From positions 32,001 through 96,000 of IMG/VR virus record IMGVR_UViG_3300010885_049703: a DNA stretch of 64,000 nt; one strand, given 5' to 3'. A program made the translations under genes and the position numbers. The notes beneath the pieces are model-generated. The model worked only from the letters and a program-made list of their open reading frames with translations, made no database searches and was not told the origin of the DNA. This document shows positions 40,076 to 63,518 of the stretch, piece by piece; within the stretch, counting starts at the first letter, position 1; each line of letters starts with the position of its first letter. The stretch is from a virus.

Positions 40076-40078
40076 CAT

Positions 40079-40102
40079 GAAAAAGCCCGCCGAAGCGGGC
40101 TT
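40079..40102 (-). terminator. intrinsic terminator of the tmRNA gene
   Basis: AAGCCCGC-TTCG-GCGGGCTTTTT. Confidence 0.85.
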
Positions 40103-40405
40103 ACTATTTTGGGTTACAAGGCATAGTTGCCCCGGGGATTACGCTGCGAGAGCGAAAACCTCGTCGTTAGCTGCGTTTGCAGTTACTAGTTTGCTTGGAT
40201 TACGTCCATCGCCTGGCGTGTTGCCTTCTTTGCTATCTCACCCTGTCGAAGCCAGGTCTGGCCCATCAGAAACATACTTCGTCCTGCAGTACGGTCCTTT
40301 TCACAAAGAGTCGCACGGTCTGCAAATATGTTTCTGGTGGACCAGGTGGGAGTCGAACCCACGTCCAGAATGCCTTTACTCCAAAGGAATTACAACAATT
40401 CTTAA
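40103..40405 (-). ncRNA. ssrA: tmRNA, circularly permuted (two-piece)
   Basis: acceptor piece with T-arm ending CUGGUCC-ACCA at 40335 lies upstream of the coding piece starting GGGCCAG at 40264 (G3:U70 pair); tag ORF ANAANDEVFALAA* at 40180-40139; outer ends approximate. Confidence 0.92.
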
Positions 40406-40412
40406 TAGTCGC

Positions 40413-40835
40413 TTATTTATTTTGTGGTTGATAATCCACGTTGGGCATACTATACAATAGAAAATTGTGACTGACTGCATCAAATCTAATCTTGAACATG
40501 CAGACTCCCGGCTCGTCAAGGTAACCATAGCTGCGCTTTATGCCTCCACGTTTTAATCTATAAACGCAAAAATGATCAAGGTCTATCAACGGTTCACCGC
40601 CTAACTCAATCAGTTCCACAATCACTGCGCTGTCTGTGTCTGTTCTTTCTATTACTTCTACACCTACACTTGCAATAGTTGTGACATCATGAACAAAGTC
40701 AAATCGTACCAGGGCAGGCTCAACTTGTTGACTAGATACCGGGTCTCCCAATATCTGCCAACGTATGGCATTGCCTTTAGATCTGATGTATAACGAAAGA
40801 TTTCTTTGATTTCTTGGCTTCAATGTATTGTTCAT
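40413..40835 (-). CDS. hypothetical protein
   Basis: ORF downstream of the B12-type radical SAM; start uncertain. Confidence 0.5.
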   Translation of the reverse strand: MNNTLKPRNQRNLSLYIRSKGNAIRWQILGDPVSSQQVEPALVRFDFVHDVTTIASVGVEVIERTDTDSAVIVELIELGGEPLIDLDHFCVYRLKRGGIKRSYGYLDEPGVCMFKIRFDAVSHNFLLYSMPNVDYQPQNK

Positions 40836-42495: not shown

Positions 42496-42569
42496 TGGAG
42501 CGGGGTACGAGAATCGAACTCGTTTAACCAGCTTGGAAGGCTGGGACACAACCAATATGCCAACCCCGC
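42496..42569 (-). tRNA. tRNA-Gly(UCC)
   Basis: cloverleaf, anticodon loop CTTCCAA, encoded CCA. Confidence 0.93.
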
Positions 42570-42577
42570 ATCATCCT

Positions 42578-43420
42578 TTATACGTTTGATGCTGCGACAA
42601 TATGATTATGCATGATTTCTTTTACTTTGTCAAATCTTTGATAACGATTTTGAGCACCCATAACGACCACAGCATACGTGCGACCGTTTTGTTCAACAAC
42701 TACTCCCACACAATATCCAGCTGGATTGGTAAACCCAGTTTTGCTTACCACCACTTCGGGAAAAGCCAACAGCACCATGGTATTGGTATTCGGTACATGG
42801 CTAACGTTGGTGTACGTTTTGTGTTTACGATGCACCACAGTGGTAGTTGCCAAATCTTGATAGGTTGAAATTCTACGTATGATTTGATATCCATATGCTG
42901 CCTCCAACATTCTCCCAACATCTTCGGCAGTACTGACATTGGTTTGAATGCGACCTGACGGATCATCAAAGTGGGTGTTCAACATAGCCAACCGTGATGC
43001 CTTGTGGTTCATGGCATCAAGAAATGCAGTACGACCACCAGGATAATCGTGACTTAAAAATTCTGCCACATTATTGTCACTGCGTATCAACAACCGTTGA
43101 AATAATTGTTCTCTAGTCACTAACCGACCTTGATACTGCACGGTCTGTTGAAGATTGGTGTTGCCGTCAAGGCTTACCATTGCAGTCATTAACTTAGTCA
43201 AACTGGCCATTGGCCTTACCAGTTGAGTTCCATGTCCTACGATAGGTGATTGTGTTTTGATGTCATAGGCCCATACACTGATGGGATTCACTGTGCGAGC
43301 AGAATGATATTTTGCTTTTTTAACTGTTGCGTGATGCGAATGATGATGGTGACGTTTTTTAGCTTCAGCAGTGTTGACTAAACATGATAATGCAATGGCT
43401 ATTAATAATATTTTTTTCAA
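42578..43420 (-). CDS. D-Ala-D-Ala carboxy/endopeptidase (peptidase S11, PBP7-like)
   Basis: signal peptide; ASLTK (SxxK), SDN, KTG. Confidence 0.9.
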   Translation of the reverse strand: MKKILLIAIALSCLVNTAEAKKRHHHHSHHATVKKAKYHSARTVNPISVWAYDIKTQSPIVGHGTQLVRPMASLTKLMTAMVSLDGNTNLQQTVQYQGRLVTREQLFQRLLIRSDNNVAEFLSHDYPGGRTAFLDAMNHKASRLAMLNTHFDDPSGRIQTNVSTAEDVGRMLEAAYGYQIIRRISTYQDLATTTVVHRKHKTYTNVSHVPNTNTMVLLAFPEVVVSKTGFTNPAGYCVGVVVEQNGRTYAVVVMGAQNRYQRFDKVKEIMHNHIVAASNV

Positions 43421-43481
43421 TGGGCACCTCGTCTAAATAGTTCAGGCAAAAAGCCTGTTTAATATTTAGCTGGTTTTTTTT

Positions 43482-43556
43482 TGGTCCGGCGTGCAGGAAT
43501 CGAACCCACATTCTAGAGGTAGAAGCTCTATGTCCTATCCGTTGAACGAACGCCAG
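43482..43556 (-). tRNA. tRNA-Arg(UCU)
   Basis: cloverleaf, loop CTTCTAC, encoded CCA. Confidence 0.92.
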
Positions 43557-43566
43557 TTGTTTTAAG

Positions 43567-43591
43567 AAAAAGCCCAGTGACACTGGGCTTT
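43567..43591. terminator. intrinsic terminator after dnaK
   Basis: AAAGCCCAGT-GTC-ACTGGGCTTTTT on the minus strand. Confidence 0.8.
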
Positions 43592-43595
43592 AATT

Positions 43596-45473
43596 TTATT
43601 TGCTTTCTTTGAAGTCGGCATCAACTACTGTTTCATCTGCTGATTGTGCGGACTCAGATGCTTTGGCTTTGGCCTCAAAGATTGGAGCAGCAGCCTTGAA
43701 CAATTCATCCAGACCGGATTTAATTGCTTCCAGGTCATTGCCTTGAACAGCAGTTTCAACCGCAGTGATTGCAGTGTTGACAGAAGTTTTTTGTTCCTCA
43801 GTTAACTGTGATTCAACTTCTTTCATTTCAGCGCGAATCATATGTAACTGTGATTCGGCCTGGTTGCGTGTTTCAATAGATTCACGTTGTTTCTTATCGG
43901 CCTCGGCATTGAGTTCAGCATCCTTGATCATCTGTTCAACTTCGGCATCACTGAGGCCAGAGTTGGATTTGATAGTGATTTTGTTTTCTTTGCCGGTATT
44001 TTTGTCTTTAGCTGATACATGCATGATACCATTGGCATCAATGTCCAATGTTACTTCAATTTGTGGCTGACCACGACGTGCTGGTGCAATGCCTTCAAGG
44101 TTGAATTCGCCCAATGATTTGTTGTACTGAAACAGTTCACGCTCGCCCTGTGCAACTTTGATAGTCACGGCAGGTTGATTGTCGTCGGCAGTGGAGAACA
44201 CTTGGCTATGCTTGGTGGGAATAGTGGTGTTCTTGTTGATCAACTTAGTGAACACTCCACCTTGTGTTTCAATACCAAGGCTCAAGGGAGTTACGTCAAG
44301 CAACAATACGTCTTTGCGCTCGCCGCCCAACACAGCACCTTGCAAGGCAGCACCTGCAGCCACTGCTTCGTCAGGATTGACATCATGTCGTGGCGCTTTG
44401 CCAAACAGTTTCTCAACTGCTTCTTGTACCTTGGGCATACGTGTTTGACCGCCAACAAGTATAACTTCATCTATGTCTGCAGCAGTGACTTTGGCATCGG
44501 TCAGGGCCTGACGGCATGGCGCCAAACTGCGTTGAATCAATTCTTCCACAAGGCTTTCTAACTTGGCACGAGTCATCTTGACATTTAAATGCTTGGGACC
44601 TGTGGCATCAGCAGTGATATAAGGCAAGTTTACATCAGTTTGTGCGCTGTTTGACAATTCAATCTTTGTGCGTTCAGCAGCTTCTTTGAGACGCTGCAGG
44701 GCCATCACATCGGCCTTGAGATCAACCCCGGACTCTTTCTTGAACTCGTCAACAAGATGATCCATGATACGTTGGTCAAAGTCCTCACCACCTAGGAATG
44801 TGTCACCATTGGTTGACAACACTTCAATTTGTTTGTCGCCGTCAACGTGGGCAATCTCAATAATTGAGACGTCAAATGTACCACCACCTAGGTCATACAC
44901 AGCAATCTTGCGATCGCGTTTGTCTTGTTTGTCCACGCCATATGCCAAGGCCGCAGCAGTTGGCTCGTTGATAATGCGCAACACTTCCAGGCCTGCAATC
45001 TTACCTGCATCCTTGGTGGCTTGACGTTGACTATCGTTGAAGTAAGCCGGCACAGTGATAACTGCCTGTGTGACTTCATGGCCAAGATAATCTTCTGCAG
45101 TCTTTTTCATCTTACGCAATACTTCGGCTGAAATTTGCGGAGGTGCTAGTTCTCGATCGTTAGCGCGAACCCAAGCATCGCCATTGCTGGCTTCCATGAT
45201 TTGATATGGCATGAGGTCAATGTCTTTTTGCACAGCTTGTTCTTTGAACTTACGTCCAATCAAACGCTTGGCTGCATAGATTGTATTCTTGGGGTTTGTC
45301 ACTGCCTGACGTTTTGCCGGTGCGCCAACTAACACTTCGGCGTCGGTGTAGGCAACAATTGATGGCGTAGTACGTGCGCCTTCTGAATTTTCAATTACTT
45401 TTGGGGTTCCATTTTCTACAACAGCCACGCATGAGTTGGTGGTTCCGAGGTCAATACCTATAATTGTGCTCAT
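43596..45473 (-). CDS. dnaK: chaperone DnaK (Hsp70)
   Basis: [42 protein letters not shown]; AAGGAG SD. Confidence 0.98.
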
Positions 45474-45563
45474 TGTTTTCTCCTTTGAAGTAAGCAAGAT
45501 TTTGCAAATGCCCTGTCGGCACATTTACAAGTAATTATTTATTTCACATTATAACACACTTAG

Positions 45564-45638
45564 TGCCCCTGCTCCGAGTCGAACGGAGATAATTTTCCCT
45601 TTTGAGGAGAACGACTTTACCAATTTGTCCACAGGGGC
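45564..45638 (-). tRNA. tRNA-Leu(CAA), short variable loop, no encoded CCA
   Basis: GCCCCTG/CAGGGGC acceptor stem, loop CTCAAAA, T-arm CTCCG-TTCGACT-CGGAG; followed by CTA. Confidence 0.85.
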
Positions 45639-45642
45639 ATGT

Positions 45643-45879
45643 TTAGTTTGACCAGGTCAGCATGAATAGAGTACGATGTTCATTCCAGCGGAATGCCACA
45701 CCTATGTTATACAATATTTCACAGTCATCATACGCCCAAACACTGTATCTTGGGCCTATGCATTGTTTGAGCCACTCTTCAATAGAATACACTCCCTGGA
45801 TCCAATCTACTTGGGCATTGCCAAGTACGGGCCAAGGAACAGTTGCATGAAATTGGAATCTATGCCAGTCCACTAACAT
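45643..45879 (-). CDS. small phage protein (F.L.W family)
   Basis: ends AFRWNEHRTLFMLTWSN; TAAATA 5 nt upstream. Confidence 0.6.
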   Translation of the reverse strand: MLVDWHRFQFHATVPWPVLGNAQVDWIQGVYSIEEWLKQCIGPRYSVWAYDDCEILYNIGVAFRWNEHRTLFMLTWSN

Positions 45880-45902
45880 GCAAATATTTATTTTATATCC
45901 CC

Positions 45903-46151
45903 TTATTTTTTGTTCATTCTTTCACGTTCAAGTTGTTCTTGATAGAGTTTTTCCTCTGCGTCATCCTCGGCTAAAATTCCAGCACGGCGCTCTTCGTCGG
46001 TTTCTATCTGATCTACATTGGCATTTAATTTTTTGATATCTTCTTCAATTGCATGCTGGTCACTGTGATCCCCGCGTAGTTTGGACATTTCTCGTTCATA
46101 CCGTGTTACAAGGCTAGGTTTAACATGTTGCCTTATCCAATCAGTTGGCAT
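45903..46151 (-). CDS. hypothetical acidic coiled-coil protein
   Basis: start at MPTDWIR after AGGA SD, downstream of tRNA-Trp. Confidence 0.55.
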   Translation of the reverse strand: MPTDWIRQHVKPSLVTRYEREMSKLRGDHSDQHAIEEDIKKLNANVDQIETDEERRAGILAEDDAEEKLYQEQLERERMNKK

Positions 46152-46169
46152 GACAATTTCCTGGTTATT

Positions 46170-46243
46170 TGGCTCCGATGGACAGAATCGAACTGCCACT
46201 CACGGTTTTGGAGACCGTTGCACTGCCATTATACTACACCGGA
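46170..46243 (-). tRNA. tRNA-Trp(CCA)
   Basis: cloverleaf, loop CTCCAAA, encoded CCA. Confidence 0.92.
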
Positions 46244-46932
46244 ATTACTATAGTTCTTACAACGTAATCAGCAAACTCTTGATGCGCGGACTCGTCAAAA
46301 TGCATACGGCCGGTGGGAGTAAATTTTTGTTCAATGCACCAATCTAAAAATACCGGGGCAATCCAATCATACCTTTTTAAAACTGCTGCGTCATCAATGG
46401 GCCAGAAACTGTCTATGTTGATAACTTTGATGCCGGCATAAATTGCAAGTTGATTTAATGTGACAATATTTTTTATTTTGTTTAATCTTCCCACTACAGG
46501 ATCAGTGGCAAACACTATCCAGTGATTTAGATATTTCTGATATAACTTGCGTTGATCAATCCATTGGTAGCGTTTTTTAACGACTTTCTTGCGTCCTTCT
46601 CTCACAACATCATCTGGTTCAGTGCGCAACCATCCTTCTAGTCCTGCTGCCAACGGCAACCATTGTTGGTTTTCTTGCGAATAGATTTCTGAACGATCAC
46701 ATCCAGTCAAGCAGGCAATTACAATGTCATTGCTGGATAGGGATGACAGTTCTCTTTCAAAAATCCTAAACATAGCATCATTGCTACCTCCGGCAATGGC
46801 GTGATTTAGGGGCCGATATCCTAGACTCTGTGCAATTTTCACAGCATAGCTGTGAGAGTAGTTGTATTGATCGTCGCTGCTGATTTCCGAACCAGCAGCA
46901 TGACTACAACCCAATATCAATGCCTGTTTCAT
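46234..46932 (-). CDS. SGNH hydrolase-like protein
   Basis: LGCSHAAG, GGSND, HFDESAH; paralog of 51278..51985. Confidence 0.6.
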   Translation of the reverse strand: MKQALILGCSHAAGSEISSDDQYNYSHSYAVKIAQSLGYRPLNHAIAGGSNDAMFRIFERELSSLSSNDIVIACLTGCDRSEIYSQENQQWLPLAAGLEGWLRTEPDDVVREGRKKVVKKRYQWIDQRKLYQKYLNHWIVFATDPVVGRLNKIKNIVTLNQLAIYAGIKVINIDSFWPIDDAAVLKRYDWIAPVFLDWCIEQKFTPTGRMHFDESAHQEFADYVVRTIVIPV

Positions 46933-46958
46933 ATGCCTACTTAGCTGTGAACCAGATA

Positions 46959-47126
46959 TTAATGCACTGCTTCTTTTGTATTCACTTCACACTCAACTAC
47001 CCAATTATTGAATTGTGTGAATGTACTTACTTCTACCCCGAGTCCCACAGCTTCGTTGACAAAATGTTGCAACAACGAATTATACAACTCATCGGGCATT
47101 GTATCTTTGGCAAATTTAATTTTCAT
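46959..47126 (-). CDS. small hypothetical protein (55 aa)
   Basis: read from sequence: MKIKFAKDTMPDELYNSLLQHFVNEAVGLG..; AGGGA SD. Confidence 0.55.
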   Translation of the reverse strand: MKIKFAKDTMPDELYNSLLQHFVNEAVGLGVEVSTFTQFNNWVVECEVNTKEAVH

Positions 47127-47151
47127 TGTCAATCCCTAGATCTAAAGTAAA

Positions 47152-47356
47152 ATGCTCTGCGTCCCGCGGCGGTAATTATACTGTGTCAGTAAACATGTCC
47201 TCTTTCAAGGGGAATACCTCTACAGCCTCCACCCGCTCCACGACCGGGACCGTTCTCGCATTGCCAGCGCCGTTTCGGTTGGAACGGTACCACCCGTGCT
47301 TGTCATAGCACTTCTCATCCTCCGGGTCAGAGTATCCAGTGACGCTGGAACGGCGC
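47152..47356 (-). ncRNA. unidentified GC-rich multi-pseudoknot RNA abutting the tRNA-Ser 3' end
   Basis: several long-range complementary segments (see findings); no credible CDS. Confidence 0.65.
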
Positions 47357-47444
47357 TGGCGGAGAGTATAGGATTCGAACCTATGCGCCACTTTCGCAAC
47401 GACAGTTTAGCAAACTGCTGCCTTGACCACTCGGCCAACTCTCC
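47357..47444 (-). tRNA. tRNA-Ser(GCU)
   Basis: long variable arm, loop TTGCTAA, encoded GCCA. Confidence 0.93.
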
Positions 47445-47565
47445 ATAAATCTAGTTGCTCTACCATATTGAAACACACTATACAACAGGTTTAGGTCTGC
47501 TTCTATATCCTGTCACGGCGTAGTATGAAGTTATCTCTAGACCTTGGCCGTAATGTGCTTTAATA

Positions 47566-47640
47566 TGGTACACGGTAGGGGAATCGAACCCCTCTTCCAT
47601 CCGTGAAAGGGATGTGTCCTAACCGATAGACGAACCGTGC
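47566..47640 (-). tRNA. tRNA-Glu(UUC)
   Basis: cloverleaf, loop CTTTCAC, encoded CCA. Confidence 0.93.
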
Positions 47641-53104: not shown

Positions 53105-53277
53105 TCTTTACCCCAATTGATTTTCAACCATACACGCTCGTGTATATAATGTGCCAGGGTCATAAAAATATTGATTATAATTGCACCACTTAATCCGGTC
53201 CATGCTGCAGTAATCAATGTTGCCACCACACGCCAAGTGATTGCTCTTACTATTGTTCTTTTGTGTAATTCCATCAA
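53080..53277 (-). CDS. DUF2061-like small membrane protein
   Basis: RTIVRAITWR...HYIHERVW.KI.WG; tandem paralog. Confidence 0.75.
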   Translation of the reverse strand: MMELHKRTIVRAITWRVVATLITAAWTGLSGAIIINIFMTLAHYIHERVWLKINWGKEWKQNNEQ

Positions 53278-54143
53278 GTTCCCCAGGCGTTGCGCCAGAT
53301 ATCTACTTGTAATCTAGGACTGTATCTATAGCCACGCTTCATTGCCAACTCAGCTACCTGCGGCACATTGAAGTTGTATAAGTCAGCAACGCCGCCCGTG
53401 GGCATCAAATACACAGGACCACCAAAGCCAGCTTTGCGGAATTGATACACCGCTTCGTCAACATCTTTCAAATCATCATCAGTGGACACAACAAACTTGA
53501 GATAGGTCATGCCCACCATCTCATAACTTTTTACAACTTCGGGACGTATAGCATCTTCCCAACGCTCTCCCGAGCATGGTAGTTTTGCACTGACACTGAA
53601 AGTCAAACGATCGTAATCTCTGCCGTGTCTAGTGAATTCTTCAAACAGGTATTCTCTAACATCTTCATGCAAAAACTGAGTACCATTGGTTTCAAATGTT
53701 ATGTTACGCAAGCCTTGTTGGCGACATTTTTCGATCAGCTTGGGATATTCAACTTGATAGCCCAGCAATGGTTCACCGCCTGTGATCACCAGGTGAACAT
53801 CGTCACTGATGTTGTCTGGACTCCATTTGTTCTTGGGAATCATGCCATGCATACGATCAGCGATTTCATCCAAGGTCATAAACGGTGACAGATGTTTGAA
53901 TGCCGGATGCCATGACGCATAACTGTCACAGCCTGTTCGTGCCAGCGGCAAGTCGTTGTAGGTTTTGTAAAGATGTACGTCGGCAGCAATTTCGTCGGGT
54001 TCAGTGGTCTTCTCACCACGCGGTAAGCCAAATCCACGACACTGAAAGTTACACCCAAATGTACGCATGAAAACGCTGGGCACACCAGCCCAACGTCCTT
54101 CACCTTGTAGACTATAAAATATTTCAGCTATTTTAAGTTGCAT
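53274..54143 (-). CDS. queE: 7-carboxy-7-deazaguanine synthase
   Basis: EIFYSLQGEG..G.PSVFMRTFGCNFQC..(insert)..CDS, ITGGEPL, ETNG, PRLQ. Confidence 0.9.
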   Translation of the reverse strand: MQLKIAEIFYSLQGEGRWAGVPSVFMRTFGCNFQCRGFGLPRGEKTTEPDEIAADVHLYKTYNDLPLARTGCDSYASWHPAFKHLSPFMTLDEIADRMHGMIPKNKWSPDNISDDVHLVITGGEPLLGYQVEYPKLIEKCRQQGLRNITFETNGTQFLHEDVREYLFEEFTRHGRDYDRLTFSVSAKLPCSGERWEDAIRPEVVKSYEMVGMTYLKFVVSTDDDLKDVDEAVYQFRKAGFGGPVYLMPTGGVADLYNFNVPQVAELAMKRGYRYSPRLQVDIWRNAWGT

Positions 54144-54167
54144 GATATTCCTTGAAAGTTTTGTGCG

Positions 54168-54196
54168 AGTATAGCACAAGAAATAAAATTAGTCAA
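54168..54196 (-). promoter_or_regulatory. sigma70-type promoter of queE
   Basis: TTGACT-17 nt-TATACT. Confidence 0.65.
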
Positions 54197-54563
54197 TGTC
54201 TTTTAAGAAAGGTTTTAATTTGGGAGGTTTCCAACCTTCAGGTTTGAGAACTTTGCCATCCTTGCGCTTGTTGACCTTACCAGTTTCTGAATCAATTTTG
54301 GCAAAGTTTGTTTGCATGACTTCGTTCCAGGCAGCTTCGGCATCTACTCCCATGCTGTGCAATGCTCCGGTGGTCACTACCAACAGATCAATCAATGCAT
54401 CCAATTGTTCCACTCGGTCTGCTGCCTGAACAGCTTCTTTGAGTTCATGCCATTCTTCTTTGATGAGATTCACATACATACGATACTGCTTGGGTTTGAA
54501 TTCATCTACTGTTTGATCACATGCCAGCATGAATCGTTTTTGATCTTCAAAAATATTTGTCAT
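54189..54563 (-). CDS. MazG-like (PRA-PH-like) NTP pyrophosphohydrolase
   Basis: LIKEEWHEL..DALID..EV..NFAK..KDGKVLKP. Confidence 0.85.
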   Translation of the reverse strand: MTNIFEDQKRFMLACDQTVDEFKPKQYRMYVNLIKEEWHELKEAVQAADRVEQLDALIDLLVVTTGALHSMGVDAEAAWNEVMQTNFAKIDSETGKVNKRKDGKVLKPEGWKPPKLKPFLKDID

Positions 54564-55108
54564 TTAGTCCACCATTGTTCCCAGGGAAATACAATCCATT
54601 GCGGATCTGCCGCTTTATTAATGTTACATGCGGTATAATTAACATCAAGTTTGCTTTCACTTGATTCGTTGTCAACTAGTGTGGCCACACGTACATTTGT
54701 GCCCCATATGTGATTCCACCTATCATGATTGGGCAAGCAACCGCTGGGCCAATCTTGTTGAATCCAGTTCAGTGTGGCACCGGTGTCGTTGATATCATCA
54801 ACTATGAGTATGTTTTTGGCGTTGATACTATAATCAAATTCTGCCAACAACTGTTCATCCTTGGGAACGTATCCAAACGCATCTTCGGCCATCCATAAAT
54901 TGCTTTCCGATTCATTGCCATCGCGCAGACTCACTTTGAGTGTCTCCATGCGCACTCCCAGGTATTGACTGATGAGATTGGCCGGAACAAGTCCACCACG
55001 AGTAATACCCACTACATAGTCAGGTCGCCAGCTGTCGTTGTGAATCTGTCTGATAATCTCCTGTGTGAAGTTTTCTACATCACGCCAGGTGTAGTATACC
55101 CGTTTCAT
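54560..55108 (-). CDS. purine phosphoribosyltransferase (Gpt-like type I PRTase)
   Basis: VGITRGGLVPA, ILIVDDINDTGAT (PRPP loop), WIVFPWE. Confidence 0.88.
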   Translation of the reverse strand: MKRVYYTWRDVENFTQEIIRQIHNDSWRPDYVVGITRGGLVPANLISQYLGVRMETLKVSLRDGNESESNLWMAEDAFGYVPKDEQLLAEFDYSINAKNILIVDDINDTGATLNWIQQDWPSGCLPNHDRWNHIWGTNVRVATLVDNESSESKLDVNYTACNINKAADPQWIVFPWEQWWTK

Positions 55109-55893
55109 AGTTTCCTTGCTTTGATTAATAAATGCCAACCCAGATATTCTTTCACTGCATCACGCATGGTATCACTCATGGCAGCAAACCAAGGTTCCAA
55201 TTCATAGCGACCTTCGCGGTATGCTGGTATGTTATACATAAAACAGTGATCCTGCCTAATACGTTCTATTTCAAACTGACCATTGAGCATCTGATAAATT
55301 TCACCTCTAGTAAATGCTTCGGCGTATGGACATTCAGCCTGTGCTTCAAACTGATCCAGCCCCTTTTGAATCATTGCATACTTCCAGGAGTTTTTAGCAT
55401 ACACCATAAAACGGAACTCGCCCCCAGGTGCCACTAAACTGTGAATCTCTTGAATGTGTTGTGCAATATTGGGTGAATGATGTATGACACCATAACTGTA
55501 CACAAGATCAAACTTGCCAAGATTTTCTATTGCTGTTGCATCATCTGGATCAAGTAAATTGATATTGCGGAAATCGCCATGTAAATCTAGAGTTTGGAAT
55601 CGGTCACGACAGATGTTTAAACTAGCATCACTGATATCAATGCCTGTGTATTCAGCACCGTGACGCACAAACTGTTCAGCGTCAGTTCCAATACCACACC
55701 CAATCTCCAACACCCGCTTGCCTTGCCAGCGATGAAACTGTGCAAAGTCAAGTATGTGTGGCTCTACACGATAACGACGTGCAGTGACTTCTTCAAAGTA
55801 CTCTACCGAACCCAAGGGTCGTTGACTGTGACGAATGTTGCAGGGTTGGCGATCCCAATAGGATTTTATTTTTTCTTCAAGTTGTTGAGACAT
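55105..55893 (-). CDS. class I SAM-dependent methyltransferase
   Basis: VLEIGCGIG, GIDIS, FDLVYSYGVIHH. Confidence 0.9.
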   Translation of the reverse strand: MSQQLEEKIKSYWDRQPCNIRHSQRPLGSVEYFEEVTARRYRVEPHILDFAQFHRWQGKRVLEIGCGIGTDAEQFVRHGAEYTGIDISDASLNICRDRFQTLDLHGDFRNINLLDPDDATAIENLGKFDLVYSYGVIHHSPNIAQHIQEIHSLVAPGGEFRFMVYAKNSWKYAMIQKGLDQFEAQAECPYAEAFTRGEIYQMLNGQFEIERIRQDHCFMYNIPAYREGRYELEPWFAAMSDTMRDAVKEYLGWHLLIKARKL

Positions 55894-56743
55894 TAACTGA
55901 TCCTGATGACATATTGACTTCTCTTTTAGTTGTAGTCATTTGCTTGTTGATGTCGTTAGCTTCAAGTTTTTCCCAGGGATTCTGTTGGTTGATCTTGACA
56001 TTCTCCCAAAAAGTAGTATCTATGCCCTTTGATTTCAAATAGCCGGCAATTTTTTCAGTGTCTGACATTCTATGATTAAACCATTTGACACTATGAAAAT
56101 CTTCGGGACTGTCAGGCTTACCCTCCAGCATTGGACGATTCTTAAATGTTTCATCATGGTTGTTGCCGGTGAGATCGTACCGATCATGCTCAACCCACAC
56201 TGGAATACGCTCCAGGATGTCCACCATGTATGCGATTTGACTCATCCAAGCGTCACTGATCTGATGTGGACTCATATATCCAAACATATCAAGCCAGTCT
56301 CTGGGAATAATTGGAAAAATACTGTAAGGATGTTCTCTATGAGTATGCACAGCCAATAACTTGAATTGACCTTGATACTTCATAATTTCTACATTCCAGC
56401 CTTGACTTTGCATCACAGCATCATCATTCCAGAACATTAACCATGCGGCATCGCTGTTTTTAGCTAGTTCTGTAACGTACTCATTAAGTCTAATATACCC
56501 CATGGGTTCAAAGCTCATTGCAGTATAATGTACACCTCGATCATCTAACAATGGTTGTAAAGATTCTTCCCAGTGTTTGATACCAACTTCGTCATCGTCA
56601 TCAAAGCCCAGGATAATTTGTATTGTTGATAGGTCTTGAACACGATTAATTAAACTCATTATACTGCGTGTCAGCGTCATTGTGCGCCCGCGAGTGGGCA
56701 ACAAAACTGCTATGTCATACTCATATGAATGTTGTTTTTCCAT
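55877..56743 (-). CDS. GT-A (family 2-like) glycosyltransferase
   Basis: IAVLLPTRGR, GFDDDD, WNDD. Confidence 0.7.
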   Translation of the reverse strand: MEKQHSYEYDIAVLLPTRGRTMTLTRSIMSLINRVQDLSTIQIILGFDDDDEVGIKHWEESLQPLLDDRGVHYTAMSFEPMGYIRLNEYVTELAKNSDAAWLMFWNDDAVMQSQGWNVEIMKYQGQFKLLAVHTHREHPYSIFPIIPRDWLDMFGYMSPHQISDAWMSQIAYMVDILERIPVWVEHDRYDLTGNNHDETFKNRPMLEGKPDSPEDFHSVKWFNHRMSDTEKIAGYLKSKGIDTTFWENVKINQQNPWEKLEANDINKQMTTTKREVNMSSGSVNVSTT

Positions 56744-56757
56744 TTATTCCTCAAATA

Positions 56758-57255
56758 TTATGCAAATAAGTCTTCGTTCCAATGTCTATGTCCCTCGCGG
56801 AAAGCCATGTTACTTTGTGTTTCACGTACTTCTACTCGATAACACCACAAACGTTCTGCTTCACCAGGTCCCCACATATCTGGAATATACACTCCATTGA
56901 CATACTTGTAAAGCATATCGGCTAGCCCCTCGCAGCCTAATCGTGGAAGAATGGTGAGTTTGGCCATGTTACGCTGTTGTAACAGTTTAAATGTCTCCAA
57001 TTCTGGATCATCTTGTGCAACTAACAAGGTGTGATCAAACTGATCTTCTAAAATCTTCTTTAGTTCTTTGAGTCCACCGTAGTCAGCAGCCCAATTGCGC
57101 ACATCTAAGTTATCGGTACCAAAGTAAAACTTCATGCTGAATGCATAGCCATGTATTAGATTGCAGTGGCTATCAGCACGCCATTGCCGGTAGGCACAGG
57201 GAAAGGCATTGTGGTATTCTTTGGTACTAGTATAATTGTATGTAACAGATTGCAT
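56758..57255 (-). CDS. queD: 6-carboxytetrahydropterin synthase-like
   Basis: HCNLIHGY, DYGGLK, FDH, VEVRET. Confidence 0.85.
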   Translation of the reverse strand: MQSVTYNYTSTKEYHNAFPCAYRQWRADSHCNLIHGYAFSMKFYFGTDNLDVRNWAADYGGLKELKKILEDQFDHTLLVAQDDPELETFKLLQQRNMAKLTILPRLGCEGLADMLYKYVNGVYIPDMWGPGEAERLWCYRVEVRETQSNMAFREGHRHWNEDLFA

Positions 57256-57258
57256 TGT

Positions 57259-57326
57259 TTTCTCCTATAAGTTAATATAGGCTTGCAGAGTTTGTATAGC
57301 GGGATGAATGCTCTAAAGGCCGCTGT
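57259..57326 (-). promoter_or_regulatory. preQ1-I-like riboswitch candidate with SD-sequestering hairpin
   Basis: AGCGG-loop(..CAUC)-CCGCU-AUACAAAC-UCUG, then CCUAUA/UAUAGG hairpin over AGGAG. Confidence 0.55.
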
Positions 57327-57335
57327 TGAAAACTA

Positions 57336-58025
57336 TTATATATGGTTTTCTCGGACTTTGTCTACATTATAGGTAAACACAGTTAGATATTTTTTATAAT
57401 GATGTTCGCTGCTACTGCAATGGAGTTGAGTACGATCCCAAGAAATCACATCGCCAAGATTCCAATCAACGATTTGTTCTATAGTCAGTCCGTGTAAATC
57501 TTCTATGGGCATATAGCTCAGATAGTCATGATATGTTTTTTCATCAAATTGATGATCGTTTATATTAACCACTTGACTATAATCAGCAACAGTACCCTGA
57601 GCTAATCCCAAAACATTTGATGCACGATCAATGGATTGTTTGAGATCAAGTCTTGAAAACTTAGTACTGGCACCAAACCAATAGTTATCAAAAAACACGG
57701 TTGATGCTTTTGGGGAGAAATCCAACGGTATTAAAAAAGATGGTCCCAAACATTCAGCAGACCACTCACGATGTGAATCCACATGTACTTTTTGATTATA
57801 CGAACGTTGATAGAAGAAAATTAATTCATCGACTGCCCAATTAAAATTTGCCAACTTGTTGATAATATCAGTAACTATTTGTTGTGGCCATTCGTCAACA
57901 TCCCAGTGAGGATGCTTGCTTGACATAGTGGGACGATGATCCCAAGGACCATCTTCCTGATCAAAATAATTTTTAAGACTAGCAATATCTTCCGGGGATA
58001 CTATATCCTTGTACACTTTAGCCAT
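57336..58025 (-). CDS. 2OG-Fe(II) oxygenase-like protein
   Basis: HVD...WDRTQLHCS...K facial-triad pattern. Confidence 0.55.
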   Translation of the reverse strand: MAKVYKDIVSPEDIASLKNYFDQEDGPWDHRPTMSSKHPHWDVDEWPQQIVTDIINKLANFNWAVDELIFFYQRSYNQKVHVDSHREWSAECLGPSFLIPLDFSPKASTVFFDNYWFGASTKFSRLDLKQSIDRASNVLGLAQGTVADYSQVVNINDHQFDEKTYHDYLSYMPIEDLHGLTIEQIVDWNLGDVISWDRTQLHCSSSEHHYKKYLTVFTYNVDKVRENHI

Positions 58026-58449
58026 TGGGATTTTTATAACCTTCTCGTTTATAATTGGCCTGTCCAGCGATTACACCACGTACCCCGCCAACAGGATCTT
58101 CGCAGTCTCCATGACGTCGGGGTATCAGATGTACATGTGGATACATCACAGTTTGCCCGGCAGCCTCGCCAAAGTTAATACCAATGTTAAATCCATCACA
58201 TTCACCTTGCTCAACCAATTTGTTGCCATGGGTTGTAGCCGAATACACTGCCTCATTGATAGTACTCACGGTATTATATCTCGGAACAAATAGTAAATGT
58301 CCTGGAGTAACTGGATAGCGATCACGATATACTACTACATGAAAATCTTCCCATACAACATCATCCCATGGTGCAATACTTTGTTTTTGAGCTTGTTCTA
58401 AATTATTCACACCAGTCATCGCTTTCCATGTAAACAGATGCTTGTTCAC
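58018..58449 (-). CDS. HIT family nucleotide hydrolase
   Basis: YPVTPGHLL, AGQTVMYPHVHLIPRR; start uncertain. Confidence 0.9.
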   Translation of the reverse strand: MNKHLFTWKAMTGVNNLEQAQKQSIAPWDDVVWEDFHVVVYRDRYPVTPGHLLFVPRYNTVSTINEAVYSATTHGNKLVEQGECDGFNIGINFGEAAGQTVMYPHVHLIPRRHGDCEDPVGGVRGVIAGQANYKREGYKNPNG

Positions 58450-58630
58450 GAGCAGATTCTATGCTTTCTGCAACAACAGTGAGAGTAGCAACACCGTGTT
58501 TGATATGAATGTCAAACGGCACACGGCCCATGGGCAACCAACCATCGTCAACTCGCAAACGAACTTTGTAGCTACGCATTTGTTGTGCTCGGCTTATGAT
58601 TTCTTGAGTATAGTCGGCTGCTGTTTTCAT
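58403..58630 (-). CDS. hypothetical protein
   Basis: small ORF in operon. Confidence 0.55.
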   Translation of the reverse strand: MKTAADYTQEIISRAQQMRSYKVRLRVDDGWLPMGRVPFDIHIKHGVATLTVVAESIESAREQASVYMESDDWCE

Positions 58631-58631
58631 A

Positions 58632-58826
58632 TCAGTCCCGCGGCATTGTTGCTGCTTCTTTGATCAGCTCTACAAGTTCTTCAACTGTTGATACTATGAT
58701 TTTAGTATTCTTCCATTCGTCGTTGTCATCACGTCCGCCAACTTCAATCATAAATCCGTTGTCGTACATGTTGATAGTAAATGCTTCATTTACTTTAGTG
58801 AGTTTGTCACTGATTGTTGTTGCCAT
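58632..58826 (-). CDS. hypothetical protein
   Basis: AAGGAG SD; YDNGFMIEVGGRD. Confidence 0.65.
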   Translation of the reverse strand: MATTISDKLTKVNEAFTINMYDNGFMIEVGGRDDNDEWKNTKIIVSTVEELVELIKEAATMPRD

Positions 58827-58849
58827 GTTCTCTCCTTGATTAGTTGAAT

Positions 58850-59182
58850 TTACTTTTTTTTACCAAATAGTGATTTTGACTTCTTTGCTAATTCTTGCTG
58901 CCGCTTTTTTTCTGCTGCTTCTTTAGCATCGGCTGCTTTTTTGGCTGATTCTCGTTCTCGTTCAATACGAATTGCATCTTCTTGACCTTGTGCAATCATT
59001 TTTTTAAACAGCAGAATTACTCGATCCTTTTCTCGCTCTGAAATTATCTTGACAGCTTCTACTTTTCCTTCGTAACTTTTGGCACTGTCTAAGAAACCTT
59101 CGGGTACTGCTAGTTTCTTTTTCTTGGGTTTTAATGCATCTAACTTCTTTTTAAACTCTTCTGGGGTGTCTTCTGTGGACAT
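58850..59182 (-). CDS. Lys/Glu-rich hypothetical protein
   Basis: AGGA SD; highly charged. Confidence 0.6.
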   Translation of the reverse strand: MSTEDTPEEFKKKLDALKPKKKKLAVPEGFLDSAKSYEGKVEAVKIISEREKDRVILLFKKMIAQGQEDAIRIERERESAKKAADAKEAAEKKRQQELAKKSKSLFGKKK

Positions 59183-59255
59183 GGTTTTTATTTCCTATAA
59201 TATAGTGAGTTCCCCCACTATACTATGTATCAATTAACCATGCTGGATTATCCCA

Positions 59256-60023
59256 TCATCTAGGCGCAAACTCTTGTTGTAGTTTGATATTGTCCATGAA
59301 CTCTTTCTTGACACTGGGGTCATCTTTGAATGCACCTGTTAGCACAGTGGTTTGTGTCAATGAACTATGTGCCATGATGCCGCGATTCTCACAGCAACCA
59401 TGTGTGGCTTGTATGTACACACCTACGTTTTTACTGCCAGTGGCCTTCATGATCTCTCTAGCGATATCATTGCACAACTCTTCTTGTAGTGTGCCACGGC
59501 GAGCACACCACTGAGCAATGCGAGTATACTTGCTCAAACCAATGAGCTTTTGAGCAGCAATGATTCCAATGTATGCAACTCCGCTGACTGGTTGATGATG
59601 GTGACTGCACATACTACGAAGCTCGCTGCGAACAACCAGCATGCCTTCATAACGGTCTGTTGTGTCGTTTGGAAATGCTGTTGCATCTGGAGCAGGTTCG
59701 TATCTTCCTGCCATGATTTCGTTAAAGTACATCTTGGCTAATCTACGTGCTGTGCCTTGACTGTTAGGATCTGTTTCGCGATCAATCAGCAATCGATCTA
59801 GCACAGTTTCAAATGCTTCTTCGGCTTCGTCAATTAGTCTAGATTTCTGATCGTCATTAACATAACCACTGATGTTATCACCGGCCCAGAAACGTTTCTT
59901 ATCATGTTTCATTTGGGTACGTATTGCATCAGCTAGATATGATTCTTGATAATCTTTATCACCTGCTGTTGTATTTGACGTCGGTTCGTCATCGCCGTCT
60001 ACATACATTTTTTCATATACCAT
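59256..60023 (-). CDS. folE: GTP cyclohydrolase I
   Basis: SMCSHH, IGLSK, LQE, HGCCENRG. Confidence 0.93.
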   Translation of the reverse strand: MVYEKMYVDGDDEPTSNTTAGDKDYQESYLADAIRTQMKHDKKRFWAGDNISGYVNDDQKSRLIDEAEEAFETVLDRLLIDRETDPNSQGTARRLAKMYFNEIMAGRYEPAPDATAFPNDTTDRYEGMLVVRSELRSMCSHHHQPVSGVAYIGIIAAQKLIGLSKYTRIAQWCARRGTLQEELCNDIAREIMKATGSKNVGVYIQATHGCCENRGIMAHSSLTQTTVLTGAFKDDPSVKKEFMDNIKLQQEFAPR

Positions 60024-60079
60024 ATTATCTCCGAGTTTTAGACGTGGATGTCTATAGGTTAATTATAAACATATTTAGA

Positions 60080-61231
60080 TCACTTGTCAAGCCCAAGTTC
60101 TTCTTCTAGTTGGCGAACTGGAGAACTCCAGTCATTGGTGAAGTTTCTTATGTACTGAATGTTATCTAAATCTTTCTGGGTTTGTAAAACAATTTCTTCA
60201 TTGGCAAAGTGTATGACCAATCCTCGACGTAAGGCAGTTTCCAAAAGTTCCTGGCGATAGTCATTGTCATCGGGTAAACTGAAAATACTAAACATGATGA
60301 GATGATTGACATTGCTGGTGTGAATCATGCTTTTCAAATGTGCATGATTTAGTCCTTCGTTCTCACCGTGTTGATAGGGAAACTTGTATCCTTTCTTGGT
60401 ACAATAATGTCGAACTGCCAAGGTTTGGAAATGCAGATCAATGTTGCGTGTTTTGACACCATCGTACTCCATGTAGCACACTACAATATCTTTGGATTCA
60501 TCAATAGATACCACTGCTTCTGAACTTTGATCGTGCAGTGGTCTAAAATATGCACCAGGCCATTTGCGGTGTGGCTGACCATCTCTAACCAGCAATCTGA
60601 TATCAATACTGACACGAGTCTTATCAGTGCGGTTGGGAATATTGCCATGAATGTGTTCTTGGAAGAACAAATGCGCCTGACCAGGTTGCAATGTAATTGG
60701 CCAACTGTTGTCAGCACAAGTAGAGTCTAGGTATTCATAGCTCCAGTTTTCGCGTTTGGCCTGGCGTGTTATTTCCCTACTCTTATCCAGATCCATGATC
60801 TGCATTGAGTTAGATTCAAAACATGGAGTGAACGGCATCCACACAGTTCTAAGTCCAAGTCCGTTGCCTACCCACCGGCCTTGATGGAAGATCAACACAG
60901 CACCAAACTTGTCTTGATTGGGTATCAAGATTCGTAAGTTACCAAATTTTTGAATTAACACATCGGTGCCCAGTTGTGGAACAACATGCTCAGATACAAT
61001 TTCATCAAAGTGTTGATAAAAATCAGTTTTCAGCAAGGCATGACTCACAGTGTTTTGAACACGTTGTATGTCATGCGGTGGAATAACTTCATGTAGTGTA
61101 TCCAGTGATGTGGCATTGGGATACAATTTTTGAATCTCACCTAAAATGATAGCCGGCATGGGATGCTGGCCTAGATCATAATCTAAGGTTTGATTATCAA
61201 ATGCTGCTTGGTCTTGAGTCAATTGTGTCAT
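60080..61231 (-). CDS. Fe(II)/2OG enzyme (PhyH-like) with HxG motif, fused to a C-terminal domain resembling 'sporadic carbohydrate cluster' proteins
   Basis: FHQGRW..VWMP..HIHGN.PN..RVSIDIR; C-terminal RHYC..FSIFSLP..IHFANE. Confidence 0.65.
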   Translation of the reverse strand: MTQLTQDQAAFDNQTLDYDLGQHPMPAIILGEIQKLYPNATSLDTLHEVIPPHDIQRVQNTVSHALLKTDFYQHFDEIVSEHVVPQLGTDVLIQKFGNLRILIPNQDKFGAVLIFHQGRWVGNGLGLRTVWMPFTPCFESNSMQIMDLDKSREITRQAKRENWSYEYLDSTCADNSWPITLQPGQAHLFFQEHIHGNIPNRTDKTRVSIDIRLLVRDGQPHRKWPGAYFRPLHDQSSEAVVSIDESKDIVVCYMEYDGVKTRNIDLHFQTLAVRHYCTKKGYKFPYQHGENEGLNHAHLKSMIHTSNVNHLIMFSIFSLPDDNDYRQELLETALRRGLVIHFANEEIVLQTQKDLDNIQYIRNFTNDWSSPVRQLEEELGLDK

Positions 61232-63003
61232 AGTGTTTCCATCCTATTTTTAATAAGTCCTTTTCTTCTTGCAGTGTAAAAATCCCCAGTTGGACTTGAA
61301 CTTCTGGCAGTGAATTTATACATAGTAGATTCATGAGCTCCTGTTATTATATTATAACTGGTTGTCAAAGTCAACGGATACTGTTGATCAAAGTCAACAA
61401 TAAACCCGCGTTGTAATTCAATCAAATCTTGGTCAACTTCTGTCAACATTGACAGAGCCGACAACGCCAACTCGGCAGCGTCTTGTTGATGCTGGTACAT
61501 GAATTCATAACTGATGCTATGAATTGCATGCCCTCCCACTCCATCAATCACTCCTTGTGTGAGATACCGATGTGTTTTGCTACGCACAGTATGATAATGT
61601 TCTTGAAATACTGTACTAGTGGATATCAATTTAAATAACTGATCATACAACGTTTGATAGGCAATATTTTTAACTTGTCGAGCATATCTTGCAATAATTT
61701 GTGTATATCCCATGGCATGCCAATGTATGATCATCCAGGCATAGACATATCCTTCAATGATATCGTCTGTGGTCATAGTGCTGGTGCCTGCAACGATCTC
61801 AGTTTGCTCGGCCACCGCATCTTGATCACGACTATCAAGATTCATATAATCTTTGACCCATATGGTTTTTAATCCATACTGTTGTCGACTCTGTGCAGTG
61901 GCCAATTCACTATTCTCTAACATCTGAGCGAACCATATGTCTATGGAATTATGTTGCCCCAACTCCAATAACTCACAAAGTCCTTGAATCCACGTATGCT
62001 TGGTTTCTAATGGTAATCCGATGATTACTTCGGTGTATGTCGGCACTTGATATTGTTCACTGAGCTGCATGACTTCTCTGATATTGTTGACATCAAGATT
62101 TTTTCTTTTGATAGCCTCTAACGTAGATTCATTCATACTCTGTACGCTGACAGTAACACCACGCCCATATGGTCCTAGGGTCTTGGCAATTTCAAATATT
62201 GCATTGGTACTATTTTTGGCATACTGTATGTTGATGACTTCTATTGCGGAGTTTTCAGCTCGTTGTCGCATAAGCCTGCTGATCTCTAAATCTCTGTCAA
62301 CGAAAATTCCAAAATTAGCATCTGCACAAAAAATATATGCCACTTGATGTGAAGCAGCCCACTCCAACTCACTGTCAACTCTTTCAAGCCCAAAGCGTTT
62401 TATTTTACTGTATGTCACTCCGCCCCAGTCACAAAAGGTACAAGCATATGGACAACCACGGTTAGTTTCCAAGGTCATTGCCCAAACTGCATCAGGGTTT
62501 GCTGATATTATATTGTCAAACACTCCTGTGAGATACGGACTTGGTATATCTAAGTCTTGTAATCGATCAGCAGGATATAACGCATCCACGGTGTTGTTGT
62601 GTAATATACTTCTCAGTATCTTTACAAAACTTTCTTCACCTTCGGCCAGTGCAATAGCATCAATAAACTGATGTGCATACATTTGCGAGGAACTCTGAGG
62701 CCCACCAAATATTATCACACAATCAGGAAATTTAATTTTTACTTGTCGGGCCAACTCCAAACAATACTGTTCGTTCCACATGTAGCAGCTGAAGCCACAC
62801 AGCACAGGATCATCAAGCTCACAAATGACTTGATCAATCGGGTCTCGGCGAAAGTACAATCCAGCAAGTTGAAAATTATCAACTATGTCTGTGAACTGAC
62901 CGGCATAACTCCAAAGACATCCGGCACTGTAAGGTAACCAATAATTAGGCTTGTTCTGAAACTCTACAACATATTGCGGTTGAAACAAGTATACATTCTT
63001 CAC
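61228..63003 (-). CDS. B12-binding-type (class B) radical SAM protein
   Basis: GFSCYMWN, FGGP, EGEE, ETNRGCPYACTFCDWG, DANFG; GTG start coupled to the upstream stop. Confidence 0.87.
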   Translation of the reverse strand: MKNVYLFQPQYVVEFQNKPNYWLPYSAGCLWSYAGQFTDIVDNFQLAGLYFRRDPIDQVICELDDPVLCGFSCYMWNEQYCLELARQVKIKFPDCVIIFGGPQSSSQMYAHQFIDAIALAEGEESFVKILRSILHNNTVDALYPADRLQDLDIPSPYLTGVFDNIISANPDAVWAMTLETNRGCPYACTFCDWGGVTYSKIKRFGLERVDSELEWAASHQVAYIFCADANFGIFVDRDLEISRLMRQRAENSAIEVINIQYAKNSTNAIFEIAKTLGPYGRGVTVSVQSMNESTLEAIKRKNLDVNNIREVMQLSEQYQVPTYTEVIIGLPLETKHTWIQGLCELLELGQHNSIDIWFAQMLENSELATAQSRQQYGLKTIWVKDYMNLDSRDQDAVAEQTEIVAGTSTMTTDDIIEGYVYAWMIIHWHAMGYTQIIARYARQVKNIAYQTLYDQLFKLISTSTVFQEHYHTVRSKTHRYLTQGVIDGVGGHAIHSISYEFMYQHQQDAAELALSALSMLTEVDQDLIELQRGFIVDFDQQYPLTLTTSYNIITGAHESTMYKFTARSSSPTGDFYTARRKGLIKNRMETL

Positions 63004-63518
63004 TGCTGCAGCCCAGTGATTTGCATAGTATACCTGGAATGATTGCCAAAGTTTCCGGCTATGTGCGTGGCAGTTCCAGTCCAGGACACCCAATCACCGG
63101 CTCTCCAGTCATCAAAGCATTGACCATCACAGTGAAAGATTTGTCCCATTTGCCAGTTGGTCAAAAATATCAACACTCTTGTGATAGTTTCAATATCTGT
63201 AACATTGTGATTCTTGCTGTATCTTCTATACAAATCACCATGCAATGGTTGTATAAGTCCGGGCTGCATGTGATGAACAACTATAAATTTTTCTTTGAGT
63301 TCAGGCCACGGATCTTGGTGCCAAAAGTTATTGGTGTTGATGTCATCGGCAACTTCCAGTGAAATCATATCCCAATAGCGATCACGATCAGCTACATCAC
63401 TCCAGACATAGATATCTTCGCCACGACTGGGACTGTCAGACATATCCTTGCGTTGATAAACCAACTGATCTAATGTCTGTTGATTCCAAATTGGATCAAT
63501 ATGTCCGTGTCTGATCAT
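63000..63518 (-). CDS. 2OG-Fe(II) oxygenase-like protein
   Basis: PLHGD...THIAGN...RYTMQITG. Confidence 0.7.
   Translation of the reverse strand: MIRHGHIDPIWNQQTLDQLVYQRKDMSDSPSRGEDIYVWSDVADRDRYWDMISLEVADDINTNNFWHQDPWPELKEKFIVVHHMQPGLIQPLHGDLYRRYSKNHNVTDIETITRVLIFLTNWQMGQIFHCDGQCFDDWRAGDWVSWTGTATHIAGNFGNHSRYTMQITGLQQ

Follow-up and report, generated by a model that had tools for sequence, protein, structure and literature searches.

What controls the expression of a queD-like gene carried by an uncultured lake jumbo phage? The question is raised by an 80-nucleotide (nt) gap on the minus strand of a 64,000-nt stretch of phage DNA (positions 32,001 to 96,000 of IMG/VR virus record IMGVR_UViG_3300010885_049703, a record of 114 kb; the whole stretch is hereafter called the window). 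The gap (57256-57335) separates an upstream open reading frame (ORF) of 229 amino acids (aa; 57336-58025) from the ORF of the QueD-like protein (56758-57255), and constitutes the leader of the latter. A sequence-only reading of this DNA had proposed that a preQ1-I-like riboswitch variant, complete with an expression platform, lies here. Our analysis establishes the leader element as genuine, far beyond chance. It is a strongly conserved cis-regulatory pseudoknot and a good riboswitch candidate, similar to preQ1-I aptamers but of a distinct, new type. We consider it probable that the leader acts as a phage-specific riboswitch, in which an H-type pseudoknot of 45 nt forms the very 5' end of the queD-like mRNA.

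A covarying pseudoknot conserved upstream of queD-like genes

The aptamer-like pseudoknot spans 57280-57324 on the minus strand, running from the 5' strand of a first helix (P1) through the 3' strand of a second (P2). P1 pairs AGCGG (57324-57320) with CCGCU (57302-57298), an assignment based on the sequence and the covariance alignment, and encloses a 17-nt hairpin loop. This loop begins with L1 (CCUUUA, 57314-57319), which across the family reads N-C-U and then continues as a variable stretch made up mostly of pyrimidines. It continues with the 5' strand of P2 (G(A)GCAU, 57313-57308, with A57312 bulged), assigned by homology, and closes with L2 (UCAUC, 57307-57303), where C57303 aligns at the position of the preQ1-I specificity cytosine. 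Downstream of P1 lies L3 (AUACAAACUCUGC, 57285-57297), which starts A-rich and then carries a UCYGC motif invariant in the alignment; the A-rich tail itself, as read from the sequence, is AUACAAAC (57297-57290). The element ends with the 3' strand of P2 (AAGCC, 57284-57280). By homology, P2 of the window thus joins G57313(A57312 bulge)GCAU57308 to A57284AGCC57280, giving four Watson-Crick pairs and one A-A mismatch. The sequence-only reading had listed a TATAAT promoter, P1, a loop ending in CAUC (57306-57303) and the A-rich tail, and all of these are present on the minus strand.

The distribution of the element was followed through the protein that it precedes. IMG/VR contigs encode more than 588 relatives of the QueD-like protein, and the leader can be recognised in nearly all of the best 80 of these. 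With the contigs contributed by a pattern scan, the total came to 200 viral loci; for those numbered L082-L200, the pattern used prescribes much of L2 and L3. Together these loci hold 188 copies with 128 unique cores. A QueD-like ORF, 34-100% identical to the window protein, directly follows 182 of the 188 copies, so that the conservation upstream of queD homologues implied by the sequence-only reading is borne out. In the remaining six, another small gene is inserted or the start codon is neither ATG nor GTG. The inserted gene found between leader and queD at L171, L025, L084 and L128 (the products being of 282 aa, 276 aa and 85 aa and a 113-aa cupin-like protein) would be the first gene under leader control.

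Covariance models (A1; R1 and R2) built from 120 unique sequences return one strong copy per locus, at 46-69 bits, apart from a locus that lacks the element, one copy that is degenerate, another that is truncated and a weak second copy. In the 114-kb record that contains the window, R1 has a single strong match, located at the site (61 bits, E = 3e-18), and R2 scores 61.5 bits at the same place. The weak second copy (L088:6-53, plus strand; 32 bits; P1 ACCAG/CUGGU) is degenerate and lies upstream of an S-adenosylmethionine (SAM)-methyltransferase gene, about 1 kb before the normal copy (L088:1000-1047), a case seen in only one of the 200 loci.

Outside viral collections the motif is scarce. 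A strict pattern scan of 185,579 GTDB genomes matched only two contigs, both from metagenome-assembled genomes (MAGs) and both with the phage QueD-like gene, and there is therefore no evidence of a bacterial version. The MAG that holds one of these matches also contains a syntenic 183-kb phage contig, in which the motif precedes a 60%-identical QueD-like gene. Of the three motif-bearing MAG contigs (L207, L208 and L210), two come from a Haliscomenobacter sp. MAG and are different jumbo-phage contigs, one of 39 kb and one of 183 kb that shares synteny with the window; the third is in a Chitinophagales MAG. Their presence in Bacteroidota MAGs is either a binning artefact or a hint at Bacteroidota hosts. 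A blastn search with 56700-58100 gave no match in 50,697 deposited phage genomes, so a cultured relative is not at hand. As far as searched, the element thus appears to be specific to one lineage of uncultured freshwater jumbo phages, whose complete members measure 353-365 kb.

Across this lineage the fold is preserved through sequence change. P1 is AGCGG/CCGCU in the family fold and also occurs as AGUGG/CCACU, AGAGG/CCUCU, ACCGG/CCGGU and UGCGG/CCGCA. P2 is formed by the 4-7 nt just 5' of the loop UCAYC, typically G(G/A)CNN, with nucleotides directly 3' of the invariant UCYGC, typically NNG(C/U)C. It shows compensatory types of four base pairs (bp; GGCA/UGCC, GGCG/CGCC, GGCU/AGCC, GGUG/CACC and GGGC/GUCC) as well as longer ones (GGCAU/AUGCC, GACAU/AUGUC, GACGC/GUGUC, GACUU/AAGUC, ACGAC/GUCGU and AUGACGC/GUGUCAU). 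In a model-fitted alignment of 101 sequences, 99.8% of P1 cells and 79.6% of P2 cells are paired, and three of the five P1 pairs and all five P2 pairs have changed on both sides. The observed covariation score of 0.391 compares with 0.133 after shuffling, where none of 500 trials reached the observed value, and with at most 0.108 when the pairing partners were slid. An alignment-free check agrees with this, in that the mean helix length is 4.05 for real combinations of loop and tail versus 3.71 for permuted ones, again with none of 500 reaching it.

The unpaired nucleotides are also conserved, reading N-C-U in L1, U-C-A-Y-C in L2 and N-U-A-N-A-A-A-Y-U-C-Y-G-C in L3, with about 20 unpaired positions invariant or nearly so, as in ligand pockets. 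L1 varies in length from 3 to 11 nt while its C and T at alignment positions 9 and 10 are at least 90% conserved; the U-C-A of L2 is likewise at least 90% conserved, its final C (C57303 in the window) is invariant in the 120 aligned unique sequences, and the closing pair of P1 (alignment pair G7-C25) is also invariant. UCUGC is kept in copies that were located by protein similarity or by model rather than by pattern. Two pairing partners for UCYGC could be ruled out: the P1 5' strand (GCGG/CYGC), as UCYGC is unchanged when P1 is AGAGG or ACCGG, and the loop GCA, as this pairing fails in GGCU and GAC-type loops.

Expression platforms and the predicted direction of the switch

Immediately downstream of the pseudoknot, the window leader can fold into a hairpin (CCUAUA-UUAACU-UAUAGG, 57264-57281, -4.9 kcal/mol) in which CCUAUA (57281-57276) pairs with UAUAGG (57269-57264). 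The hairpin masks AGG within the Shine-Dalgarno (SD) motif AGGAG (57262-57266), which is located 6 nt ahead of the ATG start of the QueD-like ORF (57255-57253), both read from the sequence. This is the hairpin that the sequence-only reading had placed over the SD. The alternative helix GGC..UAGAG/CUCUG..GCC, which was said to compete with it, is present in the subgroup of the window but restricted to that subgroup.

We surveyed the platforms of 153 unique leaders. The hairpin of the window type, CCUAUN...NAUAGG over the SD, occurs in 105 of them, with a sixth pair of G-C in 92, A-U in 7 and G-U in 5. A second platform, present in 35 leaders, is a GYCAUC...GAUGGC helix over the start codon, and a third, present in six, is a GUCUU...GGAGAC helix over the SD; the other seven are variants of the three. 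In 146 of the 153 leaders, pattern matching places the 3' strand of P2 within the 5' arm of the helix that sequesters the SD or the AUG, and in the seven variants this overlap was seen by eye. P2 and sequestration are consequently mutually exclusive. On this point the earlier claim holds: the phage queD-like gene is directly preceded by a conserved, structured cis-regulatory RNA that has its own expression platform.

The consequence for the ribosome site was modelled in ViennaRNA ensembles as the mean unpaired probability of the SD, with aptamer strands free or blocked. In the free state this probability is 0.29 as a family mean and 0.38 in the window. Blocking the P2 strands raises the family mean to 0.54 (121 leaders up, 3 down), and blocking the whole aptamer raises it to 0.66 (133 up, 2 down). 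The corresponding window values are 0.22 and 0.68, and the unpaired probability of the window start codon goes from 0.55 to 0.95 with the whole aptamer blocked. Formation of the knot should thus free the ribosome site, which predicts an ON switch, and on these computed ensembles the leader is probably a translational ON switch.

A mechanism can be proposed on this basis. In the ligand-free leader, the CCUAUA/UAUAGG hairpin would pair AGG of the SD and keep translation low, while in other relatives the equivalent helix would mask the start codon; CUCU of L3, being complementary to GGAG as well, may serve as an additional anti-SD when no ligand is bound. Binding of a small molecule at the P1/P2 junction, in a pocket made of C57303, the closing pair G57320-C57302, L1 and the A-rich L3, would stabilise P2. 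P2 would then take up C57281 and C57280, which are common to P2 and the hairpin and supply the only two G-C pairs of the latter, such that the hairpin would melt, the ribosome site would open and the QueD-like protein would be made. The same logic operates in the adenine riboswitch of Vibrio vulnificus add, a translational ON riboswitch in which the 3' strand of a ligand-stabilised aptamer helix doubles as part of the helix that sequesters the ribosome-binding site, and the ligand frees both SD and start codon. That riboswitch is nevertheless built on a three-way junction rather than a pseudoknot, and its ligand and gene context are unrelated.

Relation to preQ1-I and competing explanations

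The leader has no counterpart among catalogued RNA families. With Rfam applied to the whole window at gathering score, no family reaches threshold at the leader, and a permissive scan of 57150-57450 at E<=10 gave only chance-level matches driven by the SD region (sau-41, freshwater-2 and CRISPR-DR48). Among these, freshwater-2 (RF02980), a cis-regulatory motif from freshwater metagenomes, provides the sole full-length, if weak, Rfam alignment over the leader. It was rejected as a chance match, scoring 17 bits against a gathering score of 49.9 (E = 2.4), with an alignment that rests on the AGGAGAAAAC-AAUG ribosome site and helices that do not correspond. The sequence-only reading had suggested searching with the Rfam PreQ1 model in Infernal, and this found nothing at the site. 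For RF00522 (PreQ1), the window yields no match that reaches the gathering score of 39 bits; a threshold of E<=10 reveals none in 57150-57450 (301 nt), and none at the site when the whole 114-kb record is searched. This model likewise has no match in the MAG that carries two motif copies (G006), and none was found in 121 sampled Bacteroidota genomes. Our literature search found no description of this motif, or of any riboswitch in phage 7-deazaguanine clusters; the genome note of phage Seurat cites a riboswitch review and has nothing more on riboswitches.

The preQ1-I family (RF00522) comprises types I-III, with examples from B. subtilis queC, T. tengcongensis, C. antarcticum and E. coli (PMC11625349). 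The leader shares with it an H-type pseudoknot, a 5-bp P1 closed by G-C, a P2 between loop and 3' tail, and an A-rich L3 after P1, and both stand at the mRNA 5' end of a 7-deazaguanine-pathway gene. Also common to the two is an invariant C just 5' of the P1 3' strand; in the leader this C follows a U, matching the 'UC' that marks type I (PMC11625349). By analogy, C57303 may take part in pairing with the ligand. The differences are equally clear. The leader aptamer has 45 nt and preQ1-I about 34 nt. L1 of the leader begins with C, U or A, continues with the conserved C-U and is long and variable, whereas preQ1-I has UU/UUC (L1 U6) directly after P1, so that the conserved U of the leader is shifted by two positions. 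Its L3 has 13 nt, with UCYGC between A-tail and P2, in contrast to an A-rich L3 of about 6-8 nt that leads straight into P2 in preQ1-I. The P2 3' strand of the leader, NNGCC, is the competitor of the anti-SD helix and not the SD itself, which would turn expression on, whereas the ligand-bound fold of preQ1-I occludes the SD or favours a terminator and turns it off. All occurrences found so far are, moreover, in a single lineage of uncultured freshwater jumbo phages, and these are without QueC. In view of the Rfam miss and the differing size, L1, UCYGC and P2 3' strand, we do not file the leader as a preQ1-I member. Of the kinship that the sequence-only reading had claimed, the layout (P1, cytosine, A-tail and H-type knot) stands, while the silence of RF00522 and a wiring that predicts ON and not OFF speak against it. 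To judge from the shared architecture, the leader may work like, and possibly descend from, a preQ1-I kind of aptamer. To our knowledge, all known preQ1 riboswitches are bacterial OFF switches, and phage-encoded riboswitches for a phage's own metabolic genes are rare.

Could the leader still be a true, divergent preQ1-I member that binds preQ1 or preQ0? It has the 5-bp, G-C-closed P1, the 'UC' before the P1 3' strand (PMC11625349), the A-rich L3 and the que-type gene, and a different P2 was drawn for the window by the sequence-only reading, between UAGAG (57315-57311) and CUCUG (57290-57286). This pairing does form in the window, with five pairs (-3.0 kcal/mol) where preQ1-I has its P2. At least four pairs in that register are available to only 26 of the 128 unique members, however, and it is not the conserved P2. 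With RF00522 silent in every scan, also in the MAG with two copies, an L1 that reads N-C-U and not UU, UCYGC splitting the A-tail from the covarying P2, a P2 3' strand that is not the SD, and complete relatives which, being without QueC, have no known route to preQ0/preQ1, we regard membership as quite unlikely. A translational operator bound by a phage protein, for instance the QueD-like enzyme or another protein of the pathway, is an explanation that we rate as unlikely. Small conserved 5' pseudoknots do act in this way in phages and bacteria, as in the gene 32 leader of phage T4 and the operator of ribosomal protein S15; the element is strictly tied to one protein family, and the conserved single-stranded UCYGC could contact a protein. 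Against it, the pocket-like layout copies a known small-molecule aptamer, three platforms on one conserved core are typical of riboswitches, and no RNA-binding domain was detected among the neighbouring genes. The leader might also be a constitutive fold that senses no molecule, serving as a 5' stabiliser, as a device for tuning translation or, given a weak (-4.9 kcal/mol) and A-U-rich SD hairpin, as an RNA thermometer. A 5'-terminal stem can protect mRNA, and the fold of the leader alone has an unremarkable z-score of -1.44. Yet neither a stabiliser nor a thermometer needs some 20 invariant unpaired nucleotides, or a covarying knot that overlaps the sequestering helix in three independent designs, and this possibility seems very unlikely to us.

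The riboswitch interpretation has its own difficulties, which temper it. The homologous P2 of the window is weak: taken by itself, the duplex reaches -1.8 kcal/mol and is interrupted by one mismatch and one bulge. Blocking P2 alone leaves the SD of the window paired (0.22), as GGAG is then bound by CUCU of L3. The sequences belong to a single phage lineage, and part of the apparent covariation is therefore shared ancestry; moreover, since the 4-bp and 5-bp classes of P2 are one nucleotide out of register in the model-fitted alignment, some counts of pair types are inflated. The invariance of L2 and L3 is partly by construction, as much of both was fixed by the pattern that collected L082-L200. 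Finally, it is hard to see a metabolic reason for placing a biosynthetic gene under an ON switch. The leader nonetheless displays the general traits of a riboswitch, namely a covarying 5' leader, conserved unpaired nucleotides, linkage to one gene family and a platform that overlaps the aptamer.

Gene context, candidate ligands and promoter

The regulated gene (56758-57255, minus strand) encodes a QueD-like T-fold protein of the PTPS family with 165 aa (Pfam PF01242, 3.8e-15; PHROG 2389 'QueD-like', 3.7e-36), and is the only PTPS-family gene in its 114-kb record. The protein aligns to QueD and QueD2 structures (7V0F and 4NTM), with the signature HCNLIHGY (HCxxxHGY) replacing CxxxHGH of QueD. 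Tyr22 takes the place of the zinc ligand His16 of E. coli QueD and Tyr37 that of His33, so that two zinc ligands are replaced, while the catalytic Cys, His and Glu are retained. Among 150 unique motif-linked homologues, H30, C31, H35, G36, Y37, H75 and E145 never vary, and position 22 holds Y or F. The protein represents a distinct T-fold subfamily, with putative CPH4 synthase activity.

The surrounding genes, all on the minus strand, form a deazapurine cluster (53274-63093) that hints at an unusual route, possibly at nucleotide level. Upstream of the leader and the 229-aa ORF, which has no family match, are a HIT protein (58018-58449), FolE (59256-60023), a protein without family match in Pfam or PHROGs (60080-61231) and a B12-radical-SAM enzyme (61228-63093). 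Downstream of the QueD-like gene follow a GT2 glycosyltransferase (55877-56743), a SAM methyltransferase (55105-55893), a Gpt-like phosphoribosyltransferase (54560-55138), a MazG-like protein (54189-54563) and a QueE-like radical SAM enzyme (53274-54179). Neither QueC nor a Pfam TGT is found in the 114-kb record, and three relatives that are at least 98% complete (G001-G003) have no convincing QueC and no Pfam TGT. Since QueC is absent, the phage would be unable to make preQ0 or preQ1 by the known route, and its product is probably CDG (7-carboxy-7-deazaguanine) or a derivative, perhaps handled at the base or nucleotide level. The suggestion that the ligand may be other than preQ1 is reasonable in this light, as the complete relatives are without QueC.

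From the invariant cytosine one may suspect that the ligand presents a guanine-like face. A guanine-like heterocycle belonging to the phage FolE/QueD-like/QueE-like pathway, or the input of that pathway, is the most likely choice. Candidates would be CDG, 7-deazaguanine, guanine, preQ0 or preQ1 from the host, or a pterin (dihydroneopterin triphosphate, H2NTP, or CPH4). We speculate that ON logic is better suited to a substrate or input signal than to an end product. More tentatively still, at somewhat less than an even chance, we propose that with this leader the 7-deazapurine pathway gains its first natural ON switch, belonging to a new riboswitch class confined to viruses. Its ligand would be a pathway intermediate or input, but not preQ1 (examples being CDG, 7-deazaguanine, guanine and pterins like H2NTP or CPH4), and it would turn on the non-canonical HCxxxHGY enzyme in jumbo phages whose deazapurine is made with neither QueC nor a recognisable DpdA. 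If this holds, a phage-only, ON-wired relative with an altered pocket would constitute a new ligand-RNA pair and an example of a minimal pseudoknot aptamer re-purposed. The element would provide a handle on the unexplored deazapurine pathway of abundant lake jumbo phages, discovery of its ligand would name a pathway intermediate, and the 45-nt RNA would be a compact ON-switch part for synthetic biology.

Transcription of the leader may begin close to P1. No RNA sequencing run containing this stretch is listed. Promoter scoring identified a -35-like hexamer TAGACA (57359-57364, minus strand) and a -10 hexamer TATAAT (57335-57340, minus strand), the latter overlapping the TAA stop (57338-57336) of the upstream 229-aa ORF; the window promoter is thus sigma-70-like, with 11 of 12 matches over both hexamers and a spacer of 18 nt. 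A sigma-70 promoter was rejected as a family-wide feature, as the -35 is unconserved in relatives and their best scores are mostly 6-8 of 12. What most relatives share instead is a box of TAAATA/TAAGTA/TATAAT type: 128 of 155 unique ones have it at 5-11 nt upstream of P1, compared with 4.6% of random 28-nt windows, and its position fits a transcript start immediately before P1. We take the TAAATA-like box to be reminiscent of T4-type late promoters, and on that resemblance it may be a phage-specific, T4-late-like promoter element. The TAAATA/TAAGTA box partly overlaps the stop codons of the upstream gene, at 57335-57345 (minus strand) in the window and at equivalent sites in relatives. Elsewhere in the window, the minus strand carries a transfer-messenger RNA gene (beta/permuted type, 154 bits) and at least five tRNA genes, at 40078-40497 and 42499-47640.

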